Of a DNA stretch of 26,781 nt, positions 9,001-12,000 are shown in pieces. The DNA is taken from the IMG/VR virus record IMGVR_UViG_2681813261_000026, one strand, 5' to 3'. The stretch is from a virus. Lineage: Duplodnaviria; Heunggongvirae; Uroviricota; Caudoviricetes. Positions within the stretch are counted from its first letter, which is position 1. Each line of letters starts with the position of its first letter. A program made the position numbers.

Positions 9001-12000
9001 TCAAAGTCCTTTGTCAATTGATATTGTTCAACCGTTTTTGGATTACCTGCCGTTATATTTATCAAATGCTGCATAAATTATACCTGTGCCACGTTATACC
9101 AAGTCCCGTTAATGTATTTCTGCACCGGTCTGTAATATACGCCACCAATGTTATCGGCAGAGTTTGAGCCGGTATCCTGAACAATAATGCCGGAATATAC
9201 ACACCCGGACGGTGCCTGATGTGTCCATGTCATACCATTGTTCGCAGGTTTGTATGTGGCAGCACCACCAAGCCGGATATCCCGGACATAGCGTGAATCA
9301 AAGTTGCCATAGTTAGATGGTGATACCTGCCCGTTAACAGCAAAAGTGATGCTGTTATCTGTATTTCTCTGACTGTAAAAATGCCAGCCTGCATCATCAC
9401 CTAATTCAGCCACCACAGGACGACTTGAGTTTCCCCACAAATTGAATGCGGCTTCCTTCGTGGATGTATTGCTGCTGACCGTGAACTTTTTCCCGCTACC
9501 GGCACGTACTTTGGTACTTGAGACAATATCACCTGTAACACTCAGGCCATGCCCCATTGACACTCCGCCATTGGCGTTATTGATAGTCAGCGGTCTTAAG
9601 CCGTTCCATGTCCCAAATTTATCGCCAGAGGCCGTCAGCATTAAATATGTGCTGCCGCCATCATTCCTGATAAAGAATCCATAATTGCCATAAGCAATGC
9701 GCAGACCATTAGCACTGAGTGATGTAATTTCACCTCTTGAACGGAGACCATAAGCGGAGCTGAGTGATAATTCTTCCTGAGCGTCATTGTTTCCTGTCGC
9801 CCAGCGAATTACCCCGCCCTGAACTGTTTCATGCCAGATAGTATCTCCTTCTCCACCACGAAACTTTCTGAGATATTTTTTGCCGCCTCTGGTGCCTGAA
9901 CATAAGGCCGTAGACATATAGGCATTCTGGCTTCCGCCATCCTGATTAATCGTTCCGGTCATTGAGTCGCCCTGACGATTCCAGTCACGACGCCAGCCGG
10001 GGGAGTAGCCGTCCCCATGATTTATGTAAGTGAATTGCGCGCTGGTTGTACCGCCACCGCTTGATGTTGTTGGCGTGGTCACTCGGATAGTGATTGCAGA
10101 TTTAGTTCCCATGACCTCGACGACACAACCAGCCAGGTGGATATCACCACATCCGGTATCCGTAATGATTTTGTTATTTGCATATGACCAGGAGCCTTTG
10201 CACATCCAGTACGGATGATTAAATGCACCACGGGAATCCAGCCATTCAATAAACTGAGCGGTTGTCCAGTTTCCGGCTTCAGTGCTCAAAGCGCCGCTAT
10301 AAGCACGACAGGCACCGATATTTTTCGTGAAGGTATCCTTTCCCGGAATATCCGCACCGTTCTGATCTTTCTGAAGACGTTTTTCAGCATTGTCATAGGC
10401 AGACTTCACTGCTTTTGGCGTTGCGGCCAGCGTTTCAGAATCGCTGTTGATGGCACTACTTAGCTGGACAAGACCTTTTCGCGCTGTGGTGGCATCCTGT
10501 GCAGTGTATTTCCCGTTAGCAAGGTCATACGCTGTCTTAACCGCCTTTGGTGTTGCCGCAAGCGTTTCAGAATCGCTGTTGGTGGCGCTACTGAGCTGGA
10601 CAAGACCTTTTCGCGCTGTAGTGGCGTCCTGTGCAGTGTATTTCCCGTTAGCAAGGTCATACGCTGTCTTAACCGCCTTTGGCGTTGCCGCAAGCGTTTC
10701 AGACGTGCTGTTGGTGGCACTACTGAGCTGGACAAGACCTTTTCGAGCTGTGGTAGCGTCCTGTGCGGTATATTTCCCGTTAGCAAGGTCATAGGCGGCC
10801 TTTACCGCTTTCGGCGTTGCGGCCAGTGTTTCAGACGTGCTGTTGGTCGCACTGCTTAACTGAGTAAAACCTTTTGCGGTCAGCGAGGCGTCCGGGTGAC
10901 GTCGTGACTGTTCGTGCTCTGCAATTTTGTCATCAACGTAATCCTGTGTCGCCATCACCGTTGTGGTGTCAATGGTCAGCTCCACCGAGGCCACACTGCT
11001 GACGATGATGACCATGCGACAGGTCTGCGAACGCCCTGAGCCTTCGGCAAGAGCTGGCTTATAACTTTCGGCCATGTTCGCCACGGCAATTAACGTTCCC
11101 GCATCATCGTACAGGCCAAGCTCACGCATCCAGAAACCGCCCACCTCCGGCGGAATAACCAGCTCTGCGATAATATAATTACTGTTTCGTTTGTCCTGGC
11201 TGATTTTGTTCAGCGTATGTCGCCAGACTTCGTGGATAAGCCCGGTCTGTCCGGCATCCGGGACAGGCAATTTACCACCGCCATCCCCGACGGCCATCGT
11301 GGTAATGTTGACCTTCCGCCCTCCCGGTGCGGTTGCCGCTGCCAGCTTTGCTGCACCGGCAGTGGTGATAACGGTTCTGAATTTTGTGCTCATTATTCCT
11401 CACTTATCCGGGGTAAACCGTAATTACATCGCCGTCGTAAGCCACACCACCGGCGAACAGGTAGCCGGGAATGTCCCGGGTAATGTTCAGGCCAATAAGA
11501 TGACGGCTTGCAGGTTTGGCATCAGCAATAAGCCGTTCCATTTCCTGATACATTGCCTCTGTGATGCCGCTTTCCAGTACACCAATATCAAGCCGGAAGG
11601 TGCCGGGCGGGTCACTGTTTTCCCACCACTCCGTCACGTTGATGAGATAGCCGAGCGGCTCCACCACACGCCGGATTGCGCCGATAGTGCCTTTATGACA
11701 GTGGATGAAATAGGCATCGCGGATAACGGCGCGTTTTGTCGCTTCCGGCCACTTTTCATCCCACCTGTCGACCGAAAACGCCCACGCCAGCCACGGCAGC
11801 AGATTTGCCGGACAGGTATCCGGGTTCCACAGTTCACGAATCCTGACCGGCGTTTTTTCAATTTCCGCACAGGCTTTTGCGGCGGCAACTTCAAGCGGTG
11901 ATGAGCCGGTCGGCAGCAGTCGCGAATCACTCATCCGAGCCTCCGGTCACGACGCGGTATTCGGTACAGAAAGACGCCTGCGTACTGTTGAGCACGATGT

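Follow-up and report, generated by a model that had tools for sequence, protein, structure and literature searches.

The question raised by a 26,781-nucleotide stretch of viral DNA, the IMG/VR record IMGVR_UViG_2681813261_000026 (the whole of it is called the window below), is why its tail fibre gene H is longer than the gene H of phage P2, and what kind of fibre it encodes. The H protein has 771 amino acids and exceeds its P2 counterpart (669 amino acids) by 102 residues, in line with the excess of about 100 residues proposed in a first-pass annotation made from the sequence alone. The two proteins are 51.6% identical across their full length. The preferred answer, with a probability of about 0.85, is that H and its chaperone G represent a modular fibre of a P2-like prophage, with a repeat array that varies in register and a distal part that is a patchwork. 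Two extra units of 44 amino acids account for 88 of the 102 additional residues, and the greater length of H thus derives mainly from them. The gene, its attachment domain and its partner are located as follows.

9078..11393, minus strand: gene H, P2-type tail fibre protein, a single intact open reading frame (ORF) of 771 amino acids
10941..11393, minus strand: N-terminal baseplate-attachment domain of H, Phage_tail_fib (PF12571), aa 1–151 (Pfam E=2.8e-58; 90–100% identical to P2 H)
8547..9074, minus strand: gene G, tail fibre assembly protein (Tfa) of 175 amino acids, downstream of H (PF02413, E=2.8e-33)

The PF12571 domain, the synteny and the PF02413 chaperone encoded downstream identify H as the P2-type fibre gene of a P2-like (Peduovirus) prophage; the same three features bear out its earlier identification as a tail fibre H. 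The gene order V-W-J-I-H-G around it, with PF09684 in I, is that of P2 and of loci L005–L008. The Pfam families detected in H were PF12571, PF03406 in four stretches and PF21446 (aa 540–604); an NCBIfam search of H gave no match, and promoter and terminator scans within the gene remained at chance level. The tail fibre of the Yersinia phage vB_YpM_46 is 93.5% identical to H in amino acids over the full length. When isolated phages were searched by megablast, vB_YpM_46 aligned at 96.6% over nucleotides 1–2126 of the gene, fiAA91-ss piecemeal, and P2 only over nucleotides 1–728. A protein identical to H (P0070) is already public as an annotated tail fibre protein and is found on 12 contigs with the database names E. 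coli and Shigella sonnei, while the best identity of the H and G DNA to complete E. coli genomes was not above 98.1%; Shigella is therefore the likely origin. The 771-amino-acid allele of the window is without one Ser of an SSS run (KKFTVSSNTSTKE, window about 9470..9480, aa ~640) that is complete in the far commoner 772-amino-acid allele (KKFTVSSSNTSTKE; P0076, on 772 contigs), an in-frame difference of 3 bp. By analogy, H would assemble as a trimeric virion fibre that mediates adsorption, and its P2-type N-terminal domain, judged from P2 and Mu, would dock this trimer onto the baseplate.

Directly relevant to the length of H is the repeat array that would form the proximal shaft, composed of 44-amino-acid Phage_fiber_2 units.

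10395..10871, minus strand: tandem array of Phage_fiber_2 units, aa 175–333 (delimited by Tandem Repeats Finder (TRF), unit coordinates and PF03406)
10871-10740, 10739-10608 and 10607-10476, minus strand: full repeat units, 132 bp each
10475-10395, minus strand: partial fourth unit of ~27 amino acids, which then runs into unrelated sequence

TRF reported one strong array at 10392..10853 with a period of 132 bp, in which 3.5 copies with 89% matches gave a score of 686; a separate repeat search gave the same spacing of 132 nt. The array stands far above chance expectation. The four stretches assigned to PF03406 (Phage_fiber_2, 'Phage tail fibre repeat') reached 266.5 bits against a curated gathering cut-off of 22. 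The 44-amino-acid consensus of the unit is G[FL][TV]QLSSATNS[TD]SETLAATPKAVKxAYDLANGKYTAQDATTARK, and its core motif, SETLAATPKAVK, occurs in four copies in H, at aa 187, 231, 275 and 319. The first-pass annotation had described four 117-bp tandem repeats; the array is real and the four motifs are present, but the period is 132 bp and there are three full units plus a partial one. Its 39-residue unit is to be replaced by one of 44 residues (the consensus string quoted at the time already had 43), nor are the DNA copies almost perfect as had been stated, since full units differ from each other at 7 to 27 of 132 nucleotides: units 2 and 3 at 7, units 1 and 2 at 22, and units 1 and 3 at 27. Pairwise DNA identities between units range from 80 to 95%. 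Between units 1 and 2, the 22 nucleotide differences cause only three amino acid changes (19 of 22 are silent), which places the constraint on the protein and not on the DNA. Two ORFs in other frames cross the array (10447..10794, plus strand, 115 amino acids; 10460..10792, minus strand, 110 amino acids); they are not genes, and exist because a stop-free 132-bp unit is repeated.

Variation in the number of units is clearly seen among relatives. The SETLAATPKAVK motif occurs twice in P2 H, three times in the fiAA91-ss fibre and four times in that of vB_YpM_46, as in the window. In a comparison of the 120 best homologue clusters, the same C-terminal module of 441/442 amino acids (at least 94% identical) follows three motifs in 69 clusters, four in 27, five in 18 and six in 3; the C-terminal region is slightly shorter in the remaining three clusters, one with three motifs and two with five. 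All 120 homologues, with three to six motifs, stay full-length, and the module is found joined to two different types of N-terminal domain. Contigs longer than 4.8 Mb include alleles with three, four and five motifs. Outside the array, the H and G DNA of the window is 97–100% identical to a three-motif allele and mostly 96–100% identical to a five-motif allele (minimum 93%, in G), whereas inside the array the identity drops to 90–94%. Among 79 IMG/VR loci that share the N-terminal domain of H, two motifs were counted in 18, three in 3, four in 49 and five in 9; the P2-type downstream junction (TVMDETNKK) was always accompanied by two motifs, and the Mu-like junction (SAYDNAEKRLQK) by three to five.

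The steps by which the array changes can be read from its haplotypes, of which 51 are distinct. In several of them a substitution private to the allele is present in two or three neighbouring internal units, and adjacent units differ at 0 of 132 nucleotides in L009 and L010 and at 1–4 of 132 in L011; these are the marks of recent, independent, in-register duplications or conversions. The variation proceeds in whole 132-bp steps that never disturb the frame; the first unit and the partial last one stay constant, and the internal units are gained and lost. Copy number therefore changes by in-register duplication and deletion, with two to six motifs in relatives, and the earlier suggestion of a probably unstable copy number is supported at the level of the population, where alleles occur whose neighbouring units have the same DNA sequence. 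Such variants probably arise by unequal homologous recombination between the 132-bp units or by slippage during their replication. The literature on PF03406 holds incidental mentions only, and no discussion of copy-number variation of the repeat was found in the accessible literature on mosaic P2-like fibres. The polymorphism of two to six copies with recent duplications, a description of which was not found in that accessible literature, is the sole mildly new element of the locus.

As for the consequence of this variation, each unit would add a fixed length to the proximal shaft, and most likely the extra units only lengthen the shaft by this fixed increment. It may be asked whether copy number is, beyond that, an adaptive tuner, the 44-amino-acid units adjusting the reach or flexibility of the fibre to the depth of O-antigen or capsule and so altering adsorption or host range. 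Copy numbers of two to six on otherwise near-identical genes, the independence of the duplications and the strong conservation of the unit protein sequence despite synonymous divergence speak for this possibility, and a precedent cited for it is T4, whose host range was reportedly found by Tetart et al. in 1996 to be widened by small domain duplications in gp37. Copy number does not, however, go with a single C-terminal module, fibres with four motifs have at least eight different total lengths, and the constant pair of motifs at the P2-type junction fits lineage history as well as selection; adaptive tuning is thus rather unlikely. It is rather doubtful that the array is an evolvable length module in which frequent gain and loss of units changes the reach of the fibre and thereby adsorption on hosts differing in O-antigen or capsule depth. 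If this were true, such a module would provide P2-like phages with a fast, recombination-driven adjustment of host range that leaves the receptor-binding tip untouched.

The second component of the modular fibre, its patchwork distal part, was mapped by block-wise protein and DNA identities and by PDB sequence matches (phmmer). H resembles P2 H over aa 1–330; the segments that follow are these.

9933..10394, minus strand: Mu S'-like domain (first part of the Mu G(-) variable region), aa 334–487 (PDB 8ju3)
9513..9776, minus strand: T4 gp34/Mu S-type trimerisation domain, aa 540–627 (PF21446, E=5.6e-24, and PDB matches)
9279..9512, minus strand: distal shaft stretch common with P2 H, aa 628–705 (block identity 70–87% over aa 631–705)
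9081..9278, minus strand: fiAA91-ss-type fibre tip, aa 706–771 (block identities)

The first of these segments aligned with residues 177–332 of the chain in PDB 8ju3 ('Tail fiber protein S, S'') with a domain E-value of 1.4e-69; in blocks of 30 amino acids it is 60–87% identical to Mu S' and, until aa ~450, 83–100% identical to fiAA91-ss H. Residues 544–627 match Mu S 260–343 in PDB 5yvq (domain E=2.1e-27), and the T4 gp34 structures 4uxe and 5nxf are matched as well. Within this trimerisation domain, a stretch of 65 bp (9621..9685; blastn, query 720-784) shows 80–92% DNA identity to gp34 genes from many T4-like phages. The stretch encodes ...GNYGFFIRNDGGSTYLMLTASG... and forms a conserved island in otherwise unrelated proximal long-tail-fibre genes, which makes it a candidate recombination linker. 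DNA matches of H extend, besides the T-even phages, to P1 and D6. The distal shaft stretch ends in the conserved motif NFDSRYVRDIRLG near aa 700, a point of module change in several relatives; identity to the DNA of vB_YpM_46 and of the homologue P0007 falls at nucleotides ~2070–2130 of the gene. Beyond it, aa 706–752 of the tip are 90–100% identical to fiAA91-ss H and 17–20% identical to the tips of vB_YpM_46 and P2, while the final 19 residues, RPVQKYINGTWYNVAQV, are conserved in all compared fibres. The tip is also weakly similar to the tips of Mu S/S' and to the short fibre of phiTE (9cuy).

The distal 440 residues are accordingly a succession of Mu S'-like, Mu S/T4 gp34-like trimerisation, P2 H-like and fiAA91-ss-type segments. 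Module boundaries were located at the start of the array (relative to P0007), at its end (P2), at aa ~470 (fiAA91-ss) and at NFDSRYVRDIRLG (vB_YpM_46 and P0007). The earlier view that the C-terminal part, placed at 9078..9900, is unlike P2 H is right in that the distal part is divergent, but the divergence begins at aa ~331 (~10400), right after the repeats, and the region named includes both the P2 H-like residues 631–705 and the conserved last 19 residues. Its supposed richness in Gly, Ser and Thr amounts to a mild enrichment, mostly of Gly (14.6%), the three together making up 32.5% of aa 498–771 against 25% of P2 H. P2 H differs from the fibre of the window in both repeat number and C-terminal domain; agreement in the two would have refuted the first-pass annotation, and the alignment thus leaves it standing. 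Taken as a whole, the initial interpretation was broadly right; its errors concern the length of the unit, the perfection of the copies and the limits assigned to the divergent part.

That tail fibres are mosaic and contain in-frame repeats is textbook knowledge for P2, Mu, P1, lambda and the T-even phages. Horizontal exchange of fibre modules between phages was reportedly described by Haggard-Ljungquist et al. in 1992 and by Sandmeier in 1994, and Sandmeier is said to have proposed conserved motifs as the points of exchange. In H, C-terminal modules would have been swapped with other phages at either end of the array and at a small number of further conserved motifs, and the conserved units and motifs may act as homology patches for distal exchange among P2-, Mu-, P1- and T-even-type phages.

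Comparison with known systems illustrates this patchwork. P2 gpH/gpG (NC_001895) occupies the same position in the V-W-J-I-H-G order, its H being more than 90% identical to that of the window over the N-terminal 186 residues and having repeats of the same family; the middle of P2 H (~aa 243–530 of that protein) and its tip, in contrast, are unrelated, and it has two motifs instead of four. The fibre gp20 of vB_YpM_46 (NC_055845), like those of vB_YpM_115/117 and P37, shares the four motifs and the same Mu S'-like and gp34-like modules, but its last ~60 residues and its G are P2-type, whereas the sequence of the window becomes fiAA91-ss-type at nucleotide ~2100 of the gene. Enterobacteria phage fiAA91-ss gpH/gpG (NC_022750) agrees with the window in the tip, in G and in the Mu S'-like domain until aa ~450; it differs in having three motifs and Mu S'-like sequence in place of the gp34/Mu S-like insert and the P2-like stretch (window aa ~480–700). 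Mu S (PDB 5YVQ, 8JU3 and 9KI1) contains one copy of the repeat followed by the same junction (...AVK.A.DNA..RL.KD.NGADIP), and Mu S/S' with U/U' corresponds to the window in the two segments aligned above and in G; it differs in its N-terminal attachment domain, in the single repeat and in the tip, that of the window being only ~33% identical to that of S'. The same mosaic pattern with other middle and tip modules is found in gpH of the Yersinia phage L-413C, where the N-terminal 207 residues match P2 H and the match resumes near the C-terminus after a foreign mosaic middle (PMC7460101); a match of 207 residues places the break inside the repeat region.

Chaperone G follows the tip in its affinities. 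It is 93% identical to G of fiAA91-ss, 77% to that of vB_YpM_46, 75% to that of P2 and 73% to Mu U, and in the alignment the differences are confined to the N-terminal half, the C-terminal half being conserved. Across 71 IMG/VR loci, tip identity (over residues -62 to -20) co-varies with that of the first 100 residues of G with r=0.95, a value calculated without correction for shared ancestry. This co-variation fits the domain roles described for Tfa proteins, in which the distal fibre is bound by a variable N-terminal domain and trimerisation is driven by a conserved C-terminal one (PMC9608196, a summary of North et al. 2019). The tip and the N-terminal half of G, which binds the fibre, thus appear to be passed on together as one cassette. 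Residues 706–771 are the probable receptor-binding end, and by analogy tip and G most likely set receptor specificity together, the receptor probably being of the lipopolysaccharide-core type, as in P2 and Mu. A receptor different from that of P2 is plausible because the tip and the N-terminal half of the chaperone are of another type.

The kinship with Mu raises another explanation, namely that the locus undergoes programmed variation through an invertible switch like the G segment, a diversity-generating retroelement or a phase-variable contingency repeat. Mu S', the fibre that Mu expresses by inverting its G segment, is indeed a homologue of part of H, and tandem repeats are typical of contingency loci. 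No such switching arrangement exists at H–G, however: the sequences flanking H and G hold no significant inverted repeats (36 nt at 72% for the best pair), H and G are each present once, with no alternative fibre or chaperone cassette, no invertase lies beside G, whose neighbour is a convergent 472-amino-acid ORF without a Pfam domain, and no pair of template and variable repeats was seen. The unit of 132 bp is a multiple of three, and changes in copy number consequently never shift the frame. Programmed variation is therefore very improbable, and a Mu-like invertible system and a phase-variable locus were both rejected for want of a second cassette, an invertase, inverted repeats and a frame shift. 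The chance that the repeat is an assembly artefact, a chance similarity or a DNA- or RNA-level function is negligible: tandem repeats are prone to mis-assembly and long spurious ORFs in other frames cross this one, but the presence of the array in finished phage genomes and chromosome-scale contigs, its TRF score, the silent differences between units 1 and 2 and the match to a curated Pfam repeat refute all three.

Some observations weigh against the modular fibre with a variable array. The copy in the window lies in a defective prophage and was possibly never built into an infectious virion. The longest perfect run common to units of this allele is 56 nt, which implies that the allele itself is not especially unstable, and some of the copy numbers were taken from short-read draft assemblies, which are prone to collapsing identical units; the uncorrected correlation between tip and G belongs here as well. 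When the PDB sequences were searched with nothing but the repeat region, the repeat was found only in Mu S/S', Mu S being the sole solved protein that contains it. An AlphaFold2 monomer model of the whole of H, built from an alignment of 25 sequences, was unusable (mean predicted local distance difference test score (pLDDT) 33.8, predicted template modelling score 0.25), and its helical call for the units, at a pLDDT of 40–50, was disregarded.

Every part of H falls within a known Pfam family or has a homologue of solved structure, and the architecture is present in isolated phages. The locus accordingly carries little weight for basic biology, mosaic fibres being known and the exact protein already public. 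Its practical value is modest: the junctions at the start and end of the repeat array, at aa ~470 and at the NFDSRYVRDIRLG motif could serve as natural splice points for chimeric P2 or P4 delivery particles, and the natural series of two to six units offers a ready-made test of the effect of shaft length on adsorption. The decaying prophage retains an intact fibre and chaperone cassette, which superinfecting P2-like phages could acquire by recombination.

The state of the prophage and the surroundings of the fibre genes are defined by the following features.

22829..23827, minus strand: IstB of the IS21-family insertion sequence ISSso4, inserted in portal gene Q (region 22031..25367)
23601..25268, minus strand: IstA of the same element
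25351..26754, minus strand: 5'-truncated VgrG-like gene beyond ISSso4 (Phage_GPD from profile position 46, Phage_base_V, Gp5_trimer_C)
7014..8432, plus strand: 472-amino-acid ORF convergent with G, between G and FI, in the slot of fun(Z) in P2
1..220, minus strand: late-gene activator ogr (MFHCPLCQHAAHARTSRY...), at the extreme left edge of the window

Portal gene Q is 98.7% identical to P2 Q until it ends at residue 233 of 344 (window 22729). With Q cut by ISSso4, the prophage is defective and cannot make heads; in the sister assembly L005 it is the terminase gene that is cut, by IS1. The VgrG-like gene codes for a type VI secretion spike but is missing its 5' end, and ISSso4 has joined the prophage DNA to unrelated chromosomal DNA, the P2 early region not being adjacent. 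Tandem repeats of 23/47 bp at 25237..25360 (TRF scores 78–136), at the IstA-proximal end of ISSso4, probably correspond to the multiple terminal repeats with which IS21-family elements typically end.

The ORF convergent with G had no match in Pfam, NCBIfam or PADLOC and matched only phrog_13435 (unknown function), over its full length. Different unknown genes are found at its position in vB_YpM_46 and fiAA91-ss; the slot is a variable cargo, or moron, position, and the ORF is possibly a defence gene. In sister loci, ogr borders directly on host genes, either one for cation efflux or one for a U32 peptidase, and this is the arrangement expected at the attR side of a P2 prophage.

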